A stretch of DNA of 64,000 nt, from positions 32,001 to 96,000 of the forward strand of contig JBBFKW010000001.1 of the NCBI GenBank assembly GCA_037481835.1, written 5' to 3'. Position 1 is the stretch's first letter. Every line of letters starts with the position of its first letter. This document shows positions 7,881 through 61,013 of this stretch, one piece after another. Below the pieces are notes generated by a model. That model was not told the DNA's origin. It saw nothing but the letters and a program-made list of their open reading frames with translations, and searched no databases. Origin of the DNA: Desulfosoma sp. Lineage in GTDB: Bacteria > Desulfobacterota > Syntrophobacteria > Syntrophobacterales > DSM-9756. The position numbers and the translations under genes were made by a program.

Positions 7881-9107
7881 CTATGGTTCGCGGCTGATGA
7901 GCTCCGGTTGGCGTTCCGCGGTGTTCAAAGGGACGGCGGCGCCGTTGAGCAGGGCCTGGGCGGTGCCGCGGGCCCATCGGTCGGCCTTCTGGACGCGCTC
8001 CACCGTGTCCGCCGCCGTGGCCTCATGGGCGTCCATGACCCGGGCGATGAGCCCGGGGATGTCCGTAAAGCCCAGTCGTCCCGCGAGAAAGGCCTGGACA
8101 GCCGTTTCGTTGGCGGCGTTGAGCACCGCGGGCATGGTCCCGCCGACGCGGGCGGCCCGGTAGGCCAGGCCCAGGCACGGGAAGGCGTCCAGATCCGGCG
8201 GGTAGAACGTAAGCGCCCTCATGGCGAACAGGTCCAGCTTGGGCGCTTCCACCGGAAGCCTTTCCGGGTAGGACAAGGCGTAGGCGATGGGAATCTTCAT
8301 GTCCGGCACTCCCAGCTGGGCGATCACGGACCCGTCCACGTATTCCACCATGGAATGGACGATGCTTTCCGGATGGATATGGACGACCACGGCATCCACG
8401 GGGACGTCGAAGAGCCAATGGGCTTCGATGACTTCCAGGCCCTTGTTCATGAGGGTCGCCGAATCGATGGTGATCTTGGGGCCCATGGACCAGTTGGGAT
8501 GCCGCAAGGCCGCCTCCGGGGTCACGGAGGCCAATTCCCGGCGGTTTTTCCCGAAGAAGGGGCCTCCCGAGGCCGTCAGGAGCAGCCGTTTCACCGCCTT
8601 TGGGGAATTGCCTTGGAGCGCCTGGAAGATGGCGCTGTGTTCGCTGTCCACGGGAAGGAGCCGCCCGCCGGCGGCCTTGAGTCGCCGGGTCACCAGTTCG
8701 CCGGCGATGACCAGCGTTTCCTTGTTGGCCAGGGCGATGTCCTTTCCCGCCTCAACGGCCGCCAGGGTGGGAAGGAGGCCCGCGGCGCCCACGATGGCCG
8801 AAACCACCATATCCACATCATTTAAGGACGCCACCCGGCATAGACCCTCTTCCCCCCAAAGGATTTCCACGGTTCGGTTTTCCTCGGGAAGGATTTTTTC
8901 GAGAGCCCGGGCGGTTTCCTGATCGCAGACGGCCACGCAGCGGGGTCGCACTCGGCGGATTTGTTCCGCGAGCCGTTCGACGTTTCGACCCGCCGCCAGG
9001 CCCACGATTTCGAAGCGATCCGGAAAGGCGCAAGCCACCTCCATCGTGTTGACCCCGATGGATCCCGTGCTTCCGAGGATGCTCAGCCGCTTGCGTCGTT
9101 TCTTCAT
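7881..9107 (-). CDS. dxr: 1-deoxy-D-xylulose-5-phosphate reductoisomerase
   Basis: LGSTGSIG, LANKE, PVDSEHSAI and HPNWSMGPKITIDSATLMNKGLE. Confidence 0.98.
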   Translation of the reverse strand: MKKRRKRLSILGSTGSIGVNTMEVACAFPDRFEIVGLAAGRNVERLAEQIRRVRPRCVAVCDQETARALEKILPEENRTVEILWGEEGLCRVASLNDVDMVVSAIVGAAGLLPTLAAVEAGKDIALANKETLVIAGELVTRRLKAAGGRLLPVDSEHSAIFQALQGNSPKAVKRLLLTASGGPFFGKNRRELASVTPEAALRHPNWSMGPKITIDSATLMNKGLEVIEAHWLFDVPVDAVVVHIHPESIVHSMVEYVDGSVIAQLGVPDMKIPIAYALSYPERLPVEAPKLDLFAMRALTFYPPDLDAFPCLGLAYRAARVGGTMPAVLNAANETAVQAFLAGRLGFTDIPGLIARVMDAHEATAADTVERVQKADRWARGTAQALLNGAAVPLNTAERQPELISREP

Positions 9108-9129
9108 ATCCCTCAAGGCAAGGCGGTCG

Positions 9130-9960
9130 TCAGACAGCCTGCGCATAGACCCACACGGTGGGAAAGGCGAAAAGGAGGCTGTCCAACCGGTCCAGGAGGC
9201 CTCCGTGGCCCGGAAGGAGCGCGCTGGAATCCTTGCATCCCGCCATGCGCTTGAGGAGCGATTCCATGAGGTCTCCTGCCTGCCCCACCAATTCCGTGAG
9301 AATGGAAACGGCCCCGAGCGCCGCCACGGACGCTCCGGTGTCCCGAAGAAAAAGCACGCCGAAGATCGTCCCCACGACGGCCGAAGCCGCCAAGCCCCCC
9401 AGGGCGCCTTCCACGGTTTTCTTGGGGCTCACGGCTTCGTAGAGCTTTCGCCGCCCAAGGGTCTTTCCCGTATAATAAGCGCCCACATCCCCGGAGACGA
9501 TCACCACGAGAACGAAAAACACCCACGCCCGACCGCTTTCCAGCGCCCCGAGAAGCATGACGAAGGCCAAGGGCAGGGCCACGTAAAACCAGCCGCCCAG
9601 GGTGACCAGGCCGCGGTGGAAAGCGTCCCGCGTGAGGGGCGGCCGCGCGAGCTGTTTCGCCCAAAGGGCGAAGACGGCGCCGACCGCCGAAGCCAGGATG
9701 CCGGCCGGCCCGAAAAGCCAGGCCGCCGGAGGAAACACCGCCCCCACGACCAGGGAAAACACGAGATCCCGGCGCGTCACGGGCGGGCATTGGGCCATCA
9801 TTTCGTATTCCCAAAGCCCTACGGCGGCCGCAAGGGTCACCGCGAGGACCCACAGCCACAGCGGGCCGTAGAGCAGCATGGCCACCAGGGGAAGGGCGAG
9901 CCCGAGACCCGTGACCCAGCGTTTGGCGTGGGAACTCCATGGGGTATTGACCATGAGCAC
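9130..9960 (-). CDS. cdsA: Phosphatidate cytidylyltransferase
   Basis: SPKKTVEG and KDSSALLPGHGGLLDRLD. Confidence 0.96.
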   Translation of the reverse strand: MLMVNTPWSSHAKRWVTGLGLALPLVAMLLYGPLWLWVLAVTLAAAVGLWEYEMMAQCPPVTRRDLVFSLVVGAVFPPAAWLFGPAGILASAVGAVFALWAKQLARPPLTRDAFHRGLVTLGGWFYVALPLAFVMLLGALESGRAWVFFVLVVIVSGDVGAYYTGKTLGRRKLYEAVSPKKTVEGALGGLAASAVVGTIFGVLFLRDTGASVAALGAVSILTELVGQAGDLMESLLKRMAGCKDSSALLPGHGGLLDRLDSLLFAFPTVWVYAQAV

Positions 9961-22600: not shown

Positions 22601-22705
22601 GGGGAAAAAACCTTTTTCGGCTAGGGGGCATCCTTTGCGAGCCGGACGACGCCGTGCCATGGGGGCATATGGATTCGCCGTCATACCCCCAGGCGGTGGG
22701 GCCTC

Positions 22706-22733
22706 CTTTGCGCCTTTGCGTCTTTGCGCGAGA
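22706..22733 (-). repeat. TCTC-(RCGCMAAG)x3 repeat, distal copy
   Basis: ctttgcgcctttgcgtctttgcgcgaga, with a degenerate partner tctcgccccaagccgc at about 22742. Confidence 0.8.
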
Positions 22734-22771
22734 CTTTTTGATCTCGCCCCAAGCCGCTCTTTTCTCTCGCA

Positions 22772-24001
22772 TTAGATTCCCAGGCGGTCGATGACGGCGT
22801 CGGCAAATTCGGAGCATTTCACTTCCCGGGCGCCGTCCATCTGCCGAGCCAGATCGTAGGTGACGATCTTGTCCGAGACGGTCTGTTCCACCCCCTTTTC
22901 CACCAATCGGGCCGCTTCCACCCAGCCCATGTATTCCAACATCATGGCTCCGGACAAGATCACCGAACCGGGGTTCACCTTATCCTGGCCCGCATATTTG
23001 GGCGCCGTCCCGTGGGTGGCTTCGAACAGGGCGCATCGGTCGCCGATGTTGGCGCCGGGCGCCATGCCCAATCCGCCCACCTGTGCGGCCAAGGCGTCCG
23101 ACAGATAATCGCCGTTGAGGTTCGGGGTGGCCAGCACATGGTATTCTTCGGGGCGCAGCAAGGCTTGCTGGAACATGGCATCGGCGATCCGATCCTTGAT
23201 GACGACCTTCCCTGCAGGGACATCCCCGCCCCACCGGGACGCGACCTCTTCTTCCGTGACCGTCCGGTCGGCGAATTCGCGGGCGGCCAGTTCATAGCCC
23301 CACTGGCGAAACGCCCCTTCGGTGTACTTCATGATGTTTCCCTTGTGCACCAGCGTCACGGACGCCAGCCCGCGCTCCAGGGCATAGTGGATGGCGCGGC
23401 GCACCAGCCGCTCCGTCCCGAAGCGGCTCATGGGCTTGACCCCGATGCCCGAATGTTCGGGCACGCAGATCCCCATTTCCTCGCAGAGGAACGCGCGCAC
23501 CTTTTCCGCTTCCTTGGATCCGGCCGGCCATTCGATCCCGGCGTAGACGTCTTCCGTGTTTTCCCGAAAGACCACCATGTGAACCCGTTCCGGGTGTTTC
23601 ATGGGCGAGGGCACTCCGCGGATCCAGCGCACGGGCCGCACACAGGCGTAGAGGTCCAGCACCTGGCGAAGGGTTACGTTGAGGCTCCGCATGCCGCCCC
23701 CGACCGGCGTGGTCAGCGGCCCCTTTATGGCCACGACGCACCGGCGGATATCTTCCACCGTTTGGTCCGGAAGCCATTGCCCGGTCTGCGCCGCGGCCTT
23801 TTCGCCCGCAAGGAGTTCCTTCCACGCGATTTCCTTGGAGCCGCCGTAGGCCGAGCGAACCGCGGCATCCAAAACCCTCTGAGCCGCCGCCCAAATGTCC
23901 GGTCCCGTACCGTCCCCTTCGATAAAGCCGATCACGGGCCGATCCGGCACATGCATGCGCCCGTGATCGTCCATGGTGATCCATTGTCCATCCTTGGCCA
24001 T
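22772..24001 (-). CDS. icd: NADP-dependent isocitrate dehydrogenase
   Basis: [29 protein letters not shown] and [12 protein letters not shown]. Confidence 0.97.
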
Positions 24002-55042: not shown

Positions 55043-56941
55043 ATGTCGGGAGGGAGACGTCCGTCCCAAGGCGCTCGTGCGTCCTTTGCGCGCCGCATCC
55101 GCTGCATCCTGGATTTTTCTTGGAGAAGGCCCGCTCTGGCCTTCGCCCTCATCGTCTTTTCCACCCTTTTGGGGCCCCCAGGCTGGGCCGCTCCGGCCGG
55201 CCTGAAGATTTCCCCCGGCTTTTCCGCGCTGCCCAACGTCCGCGCATCCCTCTCGGCCCCGGCGGCGCAGAGCACGGGACGATTGCTGGTGCGGCCTCGG
55301 GCCGACGTGAGCGAAGAAGCACTGGATCGGATCTTTTCCGCCGAAGGGGTGCGGCGCCTCGCTTCCTTGCGCCGAAGCGGCATGCACGTGGTGTCGGTGC
55401 CCCCCCACCTGGAGGCGGCGGTCGCCCGGGCCCTGTCCCTGCATTCGGAAATCGCCTACGCCGAACCCGACGCCCTGGTGGCTCCCCAAGCCGCTGTCCC
55501 CAATGACCCCTTGTATCCCTATCAGTGGCATCTGCCGGTGATGGAAGTCCCCACGGCGTGGGATTACGGCACGGGGGAATCCGTCGTGGTGGCCGTTTTG
55601 GACACGGGCGTGGACGGCACCCACCCGGATCTCGCGGCGTCCCTGGTCCCCGGCTGGAACGTCTACGACGGCACCGCCGACACCTCCGACGTCTACGGGC
55701 ATGGAACCGAGGTGGCCGGCGTCATCGCGGCGGCGGCCGGAAACGGCGTGGGAAGCGCCGGCATCGCCCCGGGAGCGCTCATCATGCCCGTGCGGATCAG
55801 TCGCCCGGACGGGTTGGCCTATCTCAGCACCATCGCCGAAGGCCTCGTGTGGGCGGCCGATCACGGGGCTCGCGTGGCCAACGTGAGCTACATGGTGAGC
55901 GGGAGCGCGGCGGTGTCCGAGGCGGCCTGGTATTTCCGGCGCAAGGGCGGCTTGGTTTTCGCGTCGGCGGGAAACACGGGAACGTACGAATCCTTGAATC
56001 CCAACCCGGCCATCATCGATGTGGCGGCCACGACCCCCGGGGACGCCCGTGCGGACTGGTCCAGCTACGGCACCTACGTGGACCTGGCGGCGCCCGGGGA
56101 AAATATCGTGACGACGACCCGGGGAGGCGGCTACGCCGCGGTTTCCGGGACGTCCTTTTCCGCTCCGGCCGCCGCGGCCGCCGCGGCCTTGCTCTTTTCC
56201 GCCAATCCGTCGCTTTCCGCCGACCAGGCGGAAGGGCTCCTGAAAGGCACCGCGCTGGACATGGGCATTCCCGGGCCGGATCCCTATTACGGTTTCGGGC
56301 GCCTCCAGGCGGCCCACGCCGTTGTCGCCGCGCGGGAAACCCCAAGCCAGGACGCCCAGCCTCCCCGGGTGGCCGTGACATGGCAGTTCCTGGACGGCGA
56401 AGTGGGCCAAGCCCTGCTGGTCGGCGTGCAGGCGGAAGACGACGTCATCGTCTCCCGCGTGGCCCTCTACGCCAACGGGGCCCTGGTGGGCGAAGCGCCC
56501 CTGCCCCTTTATGTGTTCCTCCTGGATGCAACCGTATTCGGCCAAGGGCCCCTGACCTTGACGGCCAAAGCGTGGGACGCGGCAGGCCATGAAGCCGGCT
56601 CCGAACCCGTCACCGTGATGCTGGCACATCACGCCGAGCCCCTGGCCGCGCCGGCTCCCGGGGTGATCATCACCGCTCCGGCCGGCGGCGCCCAGGTCTC
56701 CGGCAAAGCCCTCATCACCATGGAGGCGGCCCCGAACACGCAGATCGTGGGCATCCAGTGCATCGTGGACGGCGAACTCAAAGCCACCGTGATCGGGCCG
56801 AGCCTGCGCTACCCCTGGGATACGTCCAAGGCGGCCGCGGGCCCCCATGACATCACGGCGGTGGCCCTGGATTCGGCGGGCAAGGTGCGTCGCACCACCA
56901 TCACGGTCTTCACGGAAGGAAACCCCGATGGGAAACCATAG
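55043..56941 (+). CDS. Secreted S8 subtilisin-like serine protease with two C-terminal Ig-like domains
   Basis: Catalytic triad LDTG / HGTEVAG / SGTSFSAP, a signal and pro region, and Ig-like repeats. Confidence 0.92.
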   Translation: MSGGRRPSQGARASFARRIRCILDFSWRRPALAFALIVFSTLLGPPGWAAPAGLKISPGFSALPNVRASLSAPAAQSTGRLLVRPRADVSEEALDRIFSAEGVRRLASLRRSGMHVVSVPPHLEAAVARALSLHSEIAYAEPDALVAPQAAVPNDPLYPYQWHLPVMEVPTAWDYGTGESVVVAVLDTGVDGTHPDLAASLVPGWNVYDGTADTSDVYGHGTEVAGVIAAAAGNGVGSAGIAPGALIMPVRISRPDGLAYLSTIAEGLVWAADHGARVANVSYMVSGSAAVSEAAWYFRRKGGLVFASAGNTGTYESLNPNPAIIDVAATTPGDARADWSSYGTYVDLAAPGENIVTTTRGGGYAAVSGTSFSAPAAAAAAALLFSANPSLSADQAEGLLKGTALDMGIPGPDPYYGFGRLQAAHAVVAARETPSQDAQPPRVAVTWQFLDGEVGQALLVGVQAEDDVIVSRVALYANGALVGEAPLPLYVFLLDATVFGQGPLTLTAKAWDAAGHEAGSEPVTVMLAHHAEPLAAPAPGVIITAPAGGAQVSGKALITMEAAPNTQIVGIQCIVDGELKATVIGPSLRYPWDTSKAAAGPHDITAVALDSAGKVRRTTITVFTEGNPDGKP

Positions 56942-57046
56942 GCGGCGGCGAAGGGGTTCGCCGGGCGGGAAGGAGGGCGGCGCCGAGGGCGCGGGGAGCG
57001 GCAAAGCCCTCGGCGGCCCCTGGGATCTCAAGGAGGCGGGAAAAGC

Positions 57047-57664
57047 TTAGGGCTGCCCGTGCGGGCCGTACATGCCCAATCCCGGTCCCACGGGACTCTT
57101 GTACAGGAGGCCGTGAGCGCCCTGGGCCGGATCGTTATAGACTTCCTGGATGATCGCAAAATCTCCCCAAATTTGCCGGCCGATTTCGGTTCCGTCGGCA
57201 CTAAGCCAGGTGCCGTTTTCGAGAACGGCATCGGAAGGGACGGCGACGATCTTGACAAAATAGGTCCACTTGCGGAGTTTTCCATTCACGTCCACCCAGC
57301 CGGATTGATGATTGGTCAGCCACGCCCCGGACCCCTTGTAGGAATCGTAGCCGTAATGGCGATCCAACAAGCCGTCGCCGTCGCAATCCTTGTTGCTGAG
57401 CCACGCGTCGTTCCATTTCATGATGAGCTCGATATCTTTGTAGGGTTGGCACCACGACGCATCAAAATAAGCGTCGCAATAGGTTCCGTTGAACATGTGG
57501 GCCTGGTAATTGTAGCCCCAGTCGTCGAAGCCCACCGTGACGAGACTTCCATCGTCGGCATACAAGGTCCCGTCTTGGATGGTGGTGCATTTCTGGGCCT
57601 GAGCCAGGCCCGCCAATCCCACGAGGACTCCCAGCGCCAAAGCCGCCATGAACTTTCTTTTCAT
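57047..57664 (-). CDS. Secreted hypothetical protein
   Basis: Signal peptide ending AQA, a DCDGDGLLD Ca-binding-like loop and many Trp/Tyr. AGGAG RBS. Confidence 0.8.
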   Translation of the reverse strand: MKRKFMAALALGVLVGLAGLAQAQKCTTIQDGTLYADDGSLVTVGFDDWGYNYQAHMFNGTYCDAYFDASWCQPYKDIELIMKWNDAWLSNKDCDGDGLLDRHYGYDSYKGSGAWLTNHQSGWVDVNGKLRKWTYFVKIVAVPSDAVLENGTWLSADGTEIGRQIWGDFAIIQEVYNDPAQGAHGLLYKSPVGPGLGMYGPHGQP

Positions 57665-57852
57665 CGCTTTCTCCTTCTTGGTGGTGTGGCCGATCGGATG
57701 GTTCGGTGCGAAAAATCCGGCGTGAGTTTTCGTCTGCCCCGTGCCTGTGCCTCACCTCCTTTCCCCGAATTCGTTTGGGACGCACTCGAAGGGTTCCATC
57801 GGCAGGGCCCGCACCAAACTTGAAGGATTTTTTCAACGCGGATTCTTCCTCC

Positions 57853-57903
57853 GCGCCTTGGTGTGAGATTTTTTTTCTCACGCCAAGGCGCAAAGGCGCA
57901 AAG
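57853..57903. repeat. Palindromic TCTC-(RCGCMAAG)x3 element downstream of GxxExxY
   Basis: gcgccttggtgtgaga, a T-rich loop, then tctcacgccaaggcgcaaaggcgcaaag. Confidence 0.9.
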
Positions 57904-57935
57904 AGGCCAAGAGAAAATCGCTTTCGCGCGAAAAC

Positions 57936-58328
57936 CTAACTCTCCAGGCGGTTCACCACCCGGAAAATTCCGTCTTTCAGGAGCACCGCCCCGAAGTTGA
58001 TGAGAAGTCCCAGGCGCAGGTCCGCCAGCCGAAGGTAGGTGAGCAGCTGCTTGTGGTGGACCGGCTGGACCGTCTCCACCGATTTCAGCTCCACGATCAC
58101 CTTCTGTTCCACCACCAGGTCGGCTCGAAAGGCGTCAGCAAGCACCAGCTCGTCGTAGCGGATGGCGATGGGCACCTCACTTTGGACGGAAAGCCCGCGC
58201 TTTTTGAGCTCATGGGCCAAGACGGCCTGGTAGACCGATTCCAAAAGGCCGGGGCCCAAAGCTCGGTGCACCTGCAGCGCGGCATCCACCACCACTTTGG
58301 CGATGTCGTTTTCGTGAAGACCCCTCAT
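57936..58328 (-). CDS. GxxExxY protein (PD-(D/E)XK-like nuclease fold)
   Basis: LGPGLLESVY, RADLVVE...VELKS, QLLTYL and LLINFG. Confidence 0.95.
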   Translation of the reverse strand: MRGLHENDIAKVVVDAALQVHRALGPGLLESVYQAVLAHELKKRGLSVQSEVPIAIRYDELVLADAFRADLVVEQKVIVELKSVETVQPVHHKQLLTYLRLADLRLGLLINFGAVLLKDGIFRVVNRLES

Positions 58329-58343
58329 CCCCCAATTCCTTTC

Positions 58344-58406
58344 CTTTGCGCCTTTGCGCCTTTGCGTGAGATCTTATTTCTCACGCCAAGGCGCAAAGGC
58401 GCAAAG
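58344..58406. repeat. Palindromic TCTC-(RCGCMAAG)x3 element upstream of GxxExxY
   Basis: 28-bp arms at 58344-58371 and 58379-58406 with a 7-nt loop. Confidence 0.92.
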
Positions 58407-58473
58407 AGAAAAACTCTTCAGGCGGTTCACCTCCTTCATGGCGTGACCGTCCCCGCGCCTCCGCGTGACCCCT

Positions 58474-59250
58474 TCAATGATCCGGGGAGGCGGCGCACAG
58501 GAGGATCTCCCTCAAGCTTCGGGAAATCCACAGCATCTTGGGGTTATCGGCGGGAAGCTTCCCCCGAAGGGCGTAGACGGCCCCTTCGGCCAGGCTCCCC
58601 CAGAGCTTGAGCATTTCGTTGTAGAGGATTTTTCGGTTTCGGAAAACGTAGGCGGGAACGGACGGGGACCCGTCGGTCACGGCATGGAGCGCGATGTCCA
58701 CGCCGGATCCCCAGGTGAGGGCTTTCAGCAGGAGGTAGGAGCGCGGGGCGTGGTAGGCGGAGGTCACCAGGATGACGCGCTTCAGGCCGTGATCCCGGAT
58801 GATCTCCCGGCAGAGGAGGGCGTTTTCGAAGGTGGTTCGGGCCCGGGGTTCGGGAAGAACCGCATCGGGCGGAAGGGGGCCGAATCTTTGGGCGTAAGCG
58901 CTAAGCTGCGCCGGGAGGGCGGGAGAAACGGCGATCTTCGGGGCGGCGCCGCTTCGAACGAGATCCCAGCCCGCTTGGATCCTCTTGGCGGCCCCGGCGA
59001 AAACGACCACGGCATCGGCCTTCCCGGGGACGTTCCCGATCCCGAGAAGGCTGACAAAGAGCGCCCCTTCCAGGGCGAAAAGCAGGGCGAGAATCCCGAG
59101 AAGCCGCCCGGCGGACAAAACCCCCGCCCGAAAAGCCCCGCCGCCTCTCTTCCTCTCACCCCAAATGAAGAGCCCCTCCTTTGCGCCTTGGCGTCTTTGC
59201 GCGAGGCCTTTTTTCTCCCGCCAAGCCGCCAAGCACGCCAAGAAAAGCAT
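58474..59250 (-). CDS. YdcF/DUF218 family protein (start uncertain)
   Basis: ADAVVVFAG, ARTTFENA and VTSAYHAPRS. Confidence 0.85.
   Translation of the reverse strand: MLFLACLAAWREKKGLAQRRQGAKEGLFIWGERKRGGGAFRAGVLSAGRLLGILALLFALEGALFVSLLGIGNVPGKADAVVVFAGAAKRIQAGWDLVRSGAAPKIAVSPALPAQLSAYAQRFGPLPPDAVLPEPRARTTFENALLCREIIRDHGLKRVILVTSAYHAPRSYLLLKALTWGSGVDIALHAVTDGSPSVPAYVFRNRKILYNEMLKLWGSLAEGAVYALRGKLPADNPKMLWISRSLREILLCAASPDH
59179..59242. repeat. Inverted pair of (RCGCMAAG)x3 elements at the 5' end of the YdcF-family gene
   Basis: ctttgcgccttggcgtctttgcgcgagg / tctcccgccaagccgccaagcacgccaag. Confidence 0.85.
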
Positions 59251-59286
59251 TTTTTGTACTGCTGATCATCCCTGCGCGAACCCTTT

Positions 59287-60582
59287 CTACGCCGCCGCCT
59301 GAAAGCACCCGCGCACAATCCCGATGACCCGCTCCAAGTCGCCGGAGGTCATGGCCGTGCCGCTGGGCAAACAGAGTCCCCGCTCGAAGAGCCCCTCGGC
59401 CACCTCTCCCCTCACGACCCTGCAGGAATGGCCACCTCTTTGCGCCTTGGCGTCTTTGCGCGAGGCCCCAAAAACGGGTTGACAATGCATGGGCTTCCAC
59501 ACAGGCCGGGATTCGATGTTTTCTTTTTCCAGGGCGATTCGGATCTCTTCCCTGCTCACTCCGGCCCTTTCGGGATCCACGGTCATCACGGTGAGCCACC
59601 GGTTGCTGCGGCTCCAGTCGGGTTCCGGCATGAAGGTGATTCCCGGAAGATCGGACAGGGCTTCGCGGTACAAGTCGAAAATTTCCCGTCTCCGGCGCAC
59701 GCGCTCGTCCAGCACCCGTATCTGCCCGCGCCCGATGGCCGCCACGATGTTGCTCATGCGGTAGTTGTACCCGATGGTGCTGTGTTCGTAGTGAGGCGCC
59801 GGATCCCGCGCCTGTTGGCTCAGAAAGCGTGCGTATTCGATGAGTTCCGGGTCGTCGCTTGCGAGCATCCCGCCTCCCGAGGTGGTGATGATCTTATTCC
59901 CGTTGAAGGAAAAGACCGCCGCCTTCGCCCCCTTCCCGGCATGCATCCAGTCTGTGTGTCGCCTCAAGCCGCCAAGCCCGCCAAGTGAATTCTTCTCGAT
60001 TTGACCTTCACCCTTGGCGCCTTGGCGCCTTTGCGCGAGGTAATAGGCGCCCACGGCCTCGGCGGCATCCACCACCACCGGCACACCGTAGCGGTCGCAG
60101 ATCTCCAGGATCCGCGGCATGTTGCAGCACTGGCCGTAGAGGTCCGTCGGCACCACGGCCTTGGGAAGTTTCCCCGCCCGAGCGCAGCGCTCCAGTTCTT
60201 CTTCCAGAAGGTCCGGATCCATATTCCAGCTTTCCCGATCCGAATCGATAAAGACCGGCACGGCCCCCTGAAAGACGATGGGCGTCACGCTCCCGATGAA
60301 GGTGAGGGTTGAGGCAAAGACCTCGTCGCCCGGGCCCACCCCCAGGCACCGCAGGGCCAAATGCATGGCGGCGGTCCCGCTTGAGACCGCCGCGCACTGG
60401 CCGATTCCCGTATATTCGGCGAATTCGCGCTCAAAGGCGTCCACCATGGGCCCCAGCGGGGCGATGTAGTTGCTCTCGAAGGCCTCCTTTACGAACCGCA
60501 GCTCCTCTCCCCCCATGTGGGGAGGCGACAAAAAGAGCCGCGGCCATACCTTTTGATTTGAATTGGCATCAAATTTCTTCAC
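59287..60582 (-). CDS. DegT/DnrJ/EryC1/StrS nucleotide-sugar aminotransferase with two repeat-derived insertions
   Basis: SSGTAAMHLAL, DAAEA, FSFNGNKIITTSGGG, GYNYRMSN and LCLPS. Confidence 0.95.
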   Translation of the reverse strand: MKKFDANSNQKVWPRLFLSPPHMGGEELRFVKEAFESNYIAPLGPMVDAFEREFAEYTGIGQCAAVSSGTAAMHLALRCLGVGPGDEVFASTLTFIGSVTPIVFQGAVPVFIDSDRESWNMDPDLLEEELERCARAGKLPKAVVPTDLYGQCCNMPRILEICDRYGVPVVVDAAEAVGAYYLAQRRQGAKGEGQIEKNSLGGLGGLRRHTDWMHAGKGAKAAVFSFNGNKIITTSGGGMLASDDPELIEYARFLSQQARDPAPHYEHSTIGYNYRMSNIVAAIGRGQIRVLDERVRRRREIFDLYREALSDLPGITFMPEPDWSRSNRWLTVMTVDPERAGVSREEIRIALEKENIESRPVWKPMHCQPVFGASRKDAKAQRGGHSCRVVRGEVAEGLFERGLCLPSGTAMTSGDLERVIGIVRGCFQAAA

Positions 60583-60591
60583 AGGCGATCC

Positions 60592-61013
60592 TTACGATCC
60601 TTGCCCAGCCCCCGGTTCCAAAGGCTTTGTTTTCGCAGGGACTCCCACAGCCACCGCCCCTGGCGGAACGTCGCGTGTCACAAAACTGTGAGCGCCCACC
60701 ACGGCGTTTTCCCCGATGGTCACCCCCGGCATGACGGTGGTATGGCTCCCCACACGGCATCCCTTCTTGAGGACCACCGGCCCGGCCTTGCCGTCTATGG
60801 TGGATACGGAATAAATGGAGCAGTGGGAGCCGATCTGGACTTCGTCCTCGATGGTCACGCCGCACTTGGCGTTGATATAGGTGAAGGCGCCGATGTCCGT
60901 TCTGTACCCAAGCCTGAAATTTTCCGTGTGTTGGACCATCCAGTTATAGACGGTAAGTTTCCCGTCTTCCACCACGGGATAAACCCAGGTGGAAAATCGA
61001 TCCCCCTGGTCAT
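60592..61013 (-). CDS. Hexapeptide acyltransferase, probably frameshifted near the 5' end
   Basis: Left-handed beta-helix repeats (IGAFTYI, IGSHCSI, PGVTIGENAVVGA). The RBS-linked ATG at 61013 is out of frame. Confidence 0.75.

Follow-up and report, generated by a model that had tools for sequence, protein, structure and literature searches.

A GxxExxY nuclease gene and its flanking repeats look like one selfish, insertable DNA cassette

We analysed a stretch of 64,000 nucleotides (nt) of a Desulfosoma sp. genome (the window; C1:32001-96000 of assembly G000, which comprises 3.63 Mb in 38 contigs), in which a 130-amino-acid (aa) gene of the GxxExxY family lies between two hairpins built of short repeated units (Table 1). 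The original prediction, made from the letters of the window, had placed this gene between octamer-unit hairpins, and matches to PF13366 and TIGR04256 together with the two hairpins confirm it. Together with its repeats the gene appears to make up a single selfish, insertable DNA unit, of a kind that we found described in no publication: literature searches on GxxExxY, PDDEXK_3, PF13366 and TIGR04256 (supplementary files lay outside them) returned nothing on function or on such repeats, a search on short tandemly repeated repetitive (STRR) sequences turned up no paper on such elements, and PMC3424549 gives the function of the family (PF13366 / TIGR04256) as 'Unknown'. The cassette has a DUF218 gene on one side and a 205-aa open reading frame (ORF) on the other, and the DegT gene, the DUF218 gene, the GxxExxY gene and the next ORF are all on the same (-) strand.

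The window protein matched PF13366 (PDDEXK_3) with an E-value of 6e-42 (143.1 bits against a cut-off of 22) and TIGR04256 (GxxExxY) with an E-value of 1.4e-42 (144.7 bits against a cut-off of 35); in the domain search PF13366 was its only match, and PF01797 was not among its domains. G27, E30, Y33, D70, E80 and K82 are all present and supply the GxxExxY motif and the D...ExK core. Across 97 sequences all six are either invariant or kept in at least 90%: D70 is invariant, and E30, E80 and K82 reach at least 90% each. A sequence search against solved structures gave 0 matches at E-values up to 10, and Foldseek found nothing at E <= 0.001, its best match being Cas4 SSO0001 at 3e-3. The AlphaFold2 model (AF2; predicted local distance difference test, 95.5) was aligned by VIA-align to 3ijm (Z 8.1), the BpuSI nuclease domain (7.9), Cas4 4ic1 (7.8) and Hjc (about 6). 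The predicted structure confirms a nuclease fold that is generically restriction-endonuclease-like and nothing more specific.

Table 1. Cassette, hairpin copies and DegT gene in the window (positions count from its first letter).
Feature	Position	Strand	Details
GxxExxY (PD-(D/E)XK) nuclease gene, 130 aa	57936-58328	(-)	PF13366 and TIGR04256 match; E30, D70, E80, K82 motif intact
Upstream hairpin	58344-58406		28-nt arms, 96% complementary, 7-nt loop
Downstream hairpin	57848-57905		21-nt arms, 86% complementary; weaker than the upstream one
Remnant: 3' end of another GxxExxY gene (...VNRLKS)	58409-58456	(-)	48 nt; holds one copy of the 91% direct repeat; remnant also in the C10 copy
Duplicated block (remnant, hairpin, gene, hairpin)	57853-58456, ~605 bp	(-)	Pairwise alignment with contig C10
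Gene-less hairpin separating the DegT stop codon from the DUF218 gene	59177-59242		Fold z -3.1
DegT aminotransferase	59287-60582	(-)	PF01041, E 6.3e-93
Single-arm copy in the DegT coding sequence, 3' part	59435-59465		In frame (…SRKDAKAQRGG…)
99-nt hairpin copy inside DegT	59941-60039	(-)	In frame; fold z -5.0
Gene-less hairpin between two same-strand genes (412-aa and 298-aa ORFs)	22704-22757

The window arm is composed of TCTCAC followed by three 8-nt GCAAAGGC-type units (CGCAAAG-type), and 14 nt separate the end of the upstream arm from the GxxExxY ATG. As predicted, the best-preserved palindrome lies directly upstream of the gene (DNA fold -38.3 kcal/mol, z -12.8; arms in Table 1). In gene-strand order it consists of the pyrimidine-rich arm of a deleted upstream copy, 7 nt, and the purine-rich arm TCTCAC(GCAAAGGC)x3 of the window cassette. 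The downstream hairpin (-19.9 kcal/mol, z -4.75) consists of the window cassette's pyrimidine-rich arm, 8 A and a degenerate, partial purine-rich arm. The flanks had been described as direct repeats of ~45 bp; the direct repeats are real and extend over 58 nt (57848-57905 / 58351-58408, 90% identity). A second direct repeat (57938-57960 / 58412-58434, 91%) brings the gene's 3' end back past the upstream hairpin, where it belongs to a remnant tail that is preceded by a degenerate arm and may represent an upstream cassette with an internal deletion. Elements thus follow one another tail to head along the gene strand, in the order deleted copy, 7 nt, purine arm-gene-pyrimidine arm, 8 nt and a partial arm. 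Because the locus reads in this way, both of its 'palindromes' are better understood as junctions between the arms of adjacent elements.

The block of ~605 bp recurs on contig C10 (~8,730-9,333) with ~97% identity and unrelated flanks, the protein copy there being 96.9% identical to the window protein (tblastn); the cassette has been duplicated to an unrelated site. A seemingly compensatory change between the C1 and C10 hairpins was rejected, as its two changes are one unit out of register and hence unpaired. No rRNA match was found in 56500-61000, and Rfam gave only sub-threshold look-alikes of microRNA precursors on the hairpins. DNA contigs from four runs end at the hairpins, and none of them revealed a clean empty site. 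DNA synteny with three same-genus genomes was limited to short matches (~64%, 87% identity), too diverged for a comparison of the locus.

The association of gene and arms reaches far beyond this genome. A scan of genome contigs with a 6-row alignment accepted 600 of 604 candidates as relatives. We retained the best 80, whose record titles name about a dozen phylum-level groups; 79 of them could be scored. Shifted controls were used for the locus statistics. An inverted repeat spanning the gene was found at a score of at least 14 in 52 of 79 GxxExxY loci against 3 of 283 controls, and at a score of at least 18 in 36/79 against 1/283, which bears out the expectation that GxxExxY flanks are enriched for unit-periodic inverted repeats. 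A strict short-period tract occurred on either flank of 35 of the 79 loci (controls, 8/283), and a cross-gene direct repeat scoring at least 20 in 25 of 101 (controls, 4/326; L019 was dropped for overlapping windows). The window's own 28-nt arm was matched at 24 or more of its 28 bases in 21 of 80 loci, the control median being 16/28, and at 22 or more bases in 35/80 loci against 8/79 controls; one match, in Nodularia, keeps 27 of the 28.

Identity to the window gene at codon third positions averages 0.32 and is saturated. Since the arm bases persist while these positions are saturated, the arms are conserved far beyond neutral expectation. Arm similarity also follows protein identity (Spearman 0.49 over 64 loci, reached by 0 of 500 Mantel permutations), rising from 0.60 below 40% protein identity to 0.84 above 70%. 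The predicted co-variation of repeat and protein clade holds for this continuous measure, whereas the discrete 7-mer class showed only weak clade specificity on a quick tree (97 sequences, 84 with a label). Of the 75 loci with a clear unit, 31 have their nearest arms in the order purine arm-gene-pyrimidine arm, 17 have the opposite order and 27 a mixed or partial one. For a comparison with homing endonucleases, the gene lies between two arms in those 31 of 75 loci, and gene-less hairpins exist. Phages and plasmids were rejected as vehicles: there was no match in 50,697 phage records, and 8 of 72,556 plasmid records matched, all typed as non-mobilizable.

Among 31 related genomes PF13366 is present in 17, and nearly all of the 24 full-length loci carry inverted arrays of three units. 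The units of these arms are diverse (CGCAGAG, CACGGAG, CACGAAG, CGCGAAG, CACAGAT, ACAGGAT, CGCTGA and others). At least six hits to the CGCAAAG double unit (at most 1 mismatch) were found in 9 of the 31 genomes, 9/9 of which have a GxxExxY gene, and the 14 relatives without one have 0-3 hits each. Repeat counts thus go with gene presence, as had been proposed, in genomes that are kin and so do not form an independent sample.

The fate of a cassette at one site could be followed between a meaB-like and an mce-like gene, so called from their translations. This junction holds the contig C22 cassette of the window genome and was compared within the same family. The cassette is intact in G000, G005 and G008. 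G002 has an internally deleted copy with the first ~60 codons only, G001 a frameshifted pseudogene with degenerate arms, and G007 a short N-terminal remnant. The junction measures ~105 nt and lacks the gene in G003, measures 85 nt and lacks the arms in G006, and is empty in G004, where a 17-nt spacer contains a ribosome-binding site only. Empty and decayed sites, which relatives had been expected to show, do exist, and presence, decay and absence are seen at a single orthologous junction. G002 contains three deleted cassette copies (L029, L017; C1:86265-89892), which have one deletion junction in common; two of the three are tandem neighbours, 12 nt apart. From the states of the meaB-mce junction and the G002 copies, it follows that the cassette is an operon insertion, that it is dispensable and that its deleted derivatives can multiply.

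Four GxxExxY genes occur in the window genome, and unit-built arms are found at 4/4. Their arm units are of three types, CGCAAAG, CACAGAG and CGCAGAG. Two complete hairpins of CACAGAG units enclose the C23 gene (59% identity), whereas a single inverted repeat of CGCAGAG units has one arm on each side of the C22 gene (50% identity). As tandem units the three resident types occupy 13, 2 and 6 loci of the genome, respectively; five unit types taken from cassettes of other genomes occupy 0. A looser 16-mer search gave 28 loci genome-wide, and 24 gene-less ones among them were judged by eye to comprise 14 two-armed copies, 1 single-armed copy and 9 chance-like matches. Ten gene-less copies align to a consensus of ~110 nt in which a T-run follows the hairpin in one orientation, and their arms retain the same T·C mismatch, copy after copy.

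In the window itself, the 16-nt double unit GCGCAAAGGCGCAAAG (at most 2 mismatches) occurs 14 times against 0.14 expected, a number that 0 of 100 shuffles reached. The diverged copies listed in the original prediction all exist, with some regrouping: 59179 pairs with 59214 in one hairpin and 59959 with 60013 in another, whereas 59438 is an arm without a partner. Near another gene-less hairpin, the stop region at 22760-22790 resembles a GxxExxY 3' end by coincidence and is the end of the 412-aa ORF. The DegT coding sequence contains both the 59438 arm and the 59959/60013 hairpin. The DegT hairpin takes the place of 4 codons, for a net gain of 29 aa just ahead of the SFNGNK lysine motif, and is missing from 6/6 uninterrupted homologs; a hairpin has been gained or lost within a coding sequence. 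The site of the single arm, near the DegT C-terminus, is variable among homologs.

A second hairpin was found at the same DegT codon in the G004 homolog (L036, G004:C308). It is built of a very different unit (GAGTTTTGA / TCAAAAC), ends ...CAT|GCCGG as the window insert does, and is out of frame, which splits the gene into two open frames of 254 and 250 aa; a GxxExxY gene lies ~230 nt downstream. That one codon holds hairpins of unrelated units in two genera could reflect a hot spot hit twice, or one old insert whose interior was replaced. In the window, one metagenome contig (run X4, record 24) fuses 59178 to 59438 across two direct arm copies; 259 nt, among them the 3' end of DegT, would be lost by this fusion. 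As both copies share more than 31 nt, this junction may be an artefact of the assembly graph, or a real variant.

We lean, somewhat above even, towards reading these elements as selfish cassettes whose nuclease acts on the cassette's own arms, the gene-less and deleted copies being non-autonomous derivatives or target and scar sites. The association of gene and arms, the conservation of the arms beyond the neutral rate and the duplication to an unrelated site support this reading, as do the states of the meaB-mce junction and the hairpin indel in DegT. The interpretation given in the original prediction is supported in part, with recognition or nicking of the repeat by the protein, and a spread of gene-less copies by it, as its putative elements. 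The cassette would comprise a GxxExxY nuclease gene that has no promoter of its own and, on either side of it, inverted arms of about three tandem 7-9-nt CRCRRAG-type units that end in CTCAC; transcripts of the host operon, reading through, would account for expression of the gene. The PD-(D/E)XK nuclease would recognise the arms sequence-specifically and cut at or near them, after which host recombination or repair may copy or move the cassette. Movement might take place by recombination between hairpins, for example when a circle with one hairpin enters a resident hairpin; because such an event would leave the gene between directly repeated hairpins, it could account for the arrangement in the window.

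Several observations weigh against this reading. Neither the comparison of filled and empty meaB-mce sites nor that of the C1/C10 boundaries, which are not sharply defined, revealed a target-site duplication or a fixed end. Twenty-seven of the 79 loci scored below 14 for the cross-gene inverted repeat, and the architecture is non-uniform, with no clear unit in 29 of 104 loci. With 38 changes on the tree, the discrete 7-mer class switches almost as often as it does in shuffles (mean 43.4, minimum 40). In the window genome, the ten aligned gene-less copies share a conserved left flank of ~35 nt and the T-run, both foreign to the cassette, and 4 of the 10 lie near the genome's repetitive extragenic palindrome (REP); on these grounds the gene-less copies may be spread by something else. 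Arrays of the octamer TAATGACC and one hairpin occur in the genome without any GxxExxY gene, and the G002 assembly has its three deleted copies and no intact GxxExxY gene.

A wider claim, which we hold only tentatively, is that bacteria harbour a so far unrecognised class of DNA cassettes, each equipped with its own trigger of recombination, and that GxxExxY proteins are their enzymes. The nuclease would read and cut the tandem units in the hairpin arms, and the cassettes might enter and leave resident hairpins in the manner of integron cassettes, without an integrase, and so might have spread across phyla into operon junctions and coding sequences. If so, a large family without a function would gain one. 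Action of the nuclease on its own arms would in itself define a type of mobile element unrelated to HUH (histidine-hydrophobe-histidine), DDE, serine and tyrosine enzymes, would explain a widespread class of unit-built intergenic hairpins, and would offer short palindromes an entry route into operons and proteins, such as the 29-aa insert of DegT.

Some of the points raised above would suit an arrangement in which the hairpins are the mobile or recombinogenic entity, moved by host machinery (e.g. template switching or general recombination), and the GxxExxY gene is a passenger with another role, for example in addiction or defence. Two-armed gene-less copies (14) and one single arm exist among 24 gene-less loci judged by eye, the gene-less family has conserved flanks of its own, TAATGACC hairpins have no cognate gene, the gene can occupy either interval of an arm array, and the deleted copies of G002 have multiplied in an assembly without an intact gene. 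Against this, the GxxExxY gene is the one partner that stays with such arms throughout about a dozen phyla, and the arm sequence is conserved along with the protein while silent sites are saturated. In addition, the repeat is abundant only in those of the 31 relatives that have the gene, and no other shared enzyme was seen. We regard the passenger explanation as unlikely and retain the self-acting nuclease as the preferred reading.

The orientation of the cassettes raises another possibility. By a crude ORF call, the longest upstream flanking ORF runs in the direction of the GxxExxY gene in 71 loci and opposite in 21, and the longest downstream one in 74 and 24; 53 loci have both flanks co-directional with the gene, and 8 have both opposed to it. 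Within 57000-60700 no promoter-like site was detected. Co-directional neighbours fit read-through expression, or selection against insertion in the opposed direction. They would also fit a cassette resembling an intervening sequence, whose arms act in RNA as a stem that is processed (e.g. by RNase III) or insulating and so spares the operon, the nuclease serving invasion only, for example by homing. The 17-nt empty meaB-mce spacer and the arm that ends 14 nt ahead of the ATG agree with such a role, and ORF-bearing 23S rRNA intervening sequences have this build according to PMC4990558. On the sense strand of 70 loci, though, arm-arm mismatches were of the G·U type in 47 cases, of the A·C type in 73 and of other types in 133. 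As there is no G·U bias and the T·C mismatches are conserved, the constraint appears to be on sequence and not on a sense-strand RNA helix. It is the arm sequence, beyond mere pairing, that is conserved across phyla, and the DegT insert is in frame, as expected if it is translated instead of removed. An action of the arms in RNA seems to us quite improbable.

Least of all do we credit a host-beneficial nuclease (e.g. in defence or repair) with arms as operator or terminator and dispersed hairpins as ordinary intergenic terminators of similar sequence: the T-run after gene-less copies and a modelled fold nearest Cas4 and restriction-type nuclease domains would suit it, but the cassette has decayed or been lost repeatedly at one locus within a family, is patchy (17/31 relatives) and multi-copy, has foreign-looking arms even in AT-rich hosts, and comes with hairpins inside coding sequence, while terminator-like sites in 57000-60700 are at chance level (4 observed against 5.1 expected).

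Among known systems, the closest analogy is the REP with its REP-associated tyrosine transposase (RAYT), as the original prediction had suggested; the likeness does not amount to membership, and two defining features, the HUH enzyme and the GTAG/CGTC tag, are lacking. Common to both are a small nuclease gene flanked by inverted copies of a genome-dispersed palindromic repeat, and a repeat type that goes with the gene type. The cassette enzyme, however, is of the PD-(D/E)XK type, whereas that of RAYTs is a Y1 HUH enzyme (PF01797). REP palindromes are tagged GTAG or CGTC at one end, as described in PMC3733652, whereas the cassette arms are tandem 7-9-nt units ending in TCTCAC / GTGAGA with no such tag. 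RAYTs are typically single-copy according to PMC5581495, whereas four GxxExxY copies occur here and are decaying. Gene and arms of the cassette also recur together across phyla. The 23S rRNA intervening sequence of Coxiella burnetii, with its S23p gene, is likewise (PMC4990558) a small selfish ORF in inverted repeats, inserted co-directionally in a transcribed unit. The cassette differs in lying between or inside protein-coding genes and not in rRNA, in carrying another ORF family (PF05635 was not found in the window genome) and in having arms without sign of RNA-helix constraint.

Integron gene cassettes are promoter-less genes with imperfect attC hairpins and form co-directional arrays; the directly repeated hairpins of the window are what the integration of a circle at a hairpin would produce. 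In contrast to integrons, the candidate enzyme here is inside the cassette and the hairpins are made of tandem units; no integrase turned up beside the arrays, although no search aimed at IntI was made. Insertion sequences and miniature inverted-repeat transposable elements (MITEs) have terminal inverted repeats, and IS30 and IS911 form abutted-end junctions in dimers or circles. The cassettes resemble them in their terminal inverted repeats, in the internally deleted multi-copy derivatives of G002 and in tail-to-head junctions with 7-12-nt spacers, but are only ~0.5 kb long, have no known transposase family and showed no target-site duplication. Rickettsia palindromic elements, like the hairpin in DegT, interrupt protein-coding genes without loss of the reading frame; they are not known to have an associated nuclease gene, and they differ in sequence and host range.

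The window genome has a RAYT-like gene of its own. Its single Y1_Tnp gene (PF01797; C8:140941-141240, L125) is flanked by inverted copies of GTAGGTTGGGGTGAGCGAAGCGAACCCCAAC (37 nt, 95% complementary, starting with GTAG). This is a canonical GTAG-type REP/RAYT pair, separate from the GxxExxY cassettes, and none of the five unit types searched was present in the 3.3-kb Y1_Tnp locus. The TAATGACC loci, with no GxxExxY gene nearby, are at C6:162266-162656, C6:163743-163818, C11:98881-98960 and C18:34207-34268; some of their arrays decay into CCCAATG-like units, and some adjoin a GTAG REP. The GTAGGTTGGGGTGAGCGAAGCGAACCCCAAC repeat recurs near several gene-less octamer hairpins. In several copies (C2:~262000, C8:~93750, C15:~68080) the REP is separated from the gene-less hairpin by a conserved stretch, ...CGACGAACCATGAAAGTCCTGCCCTCCCGGAT.CCGACCGCG..., and this stretch is also present beside the RAYT gene.

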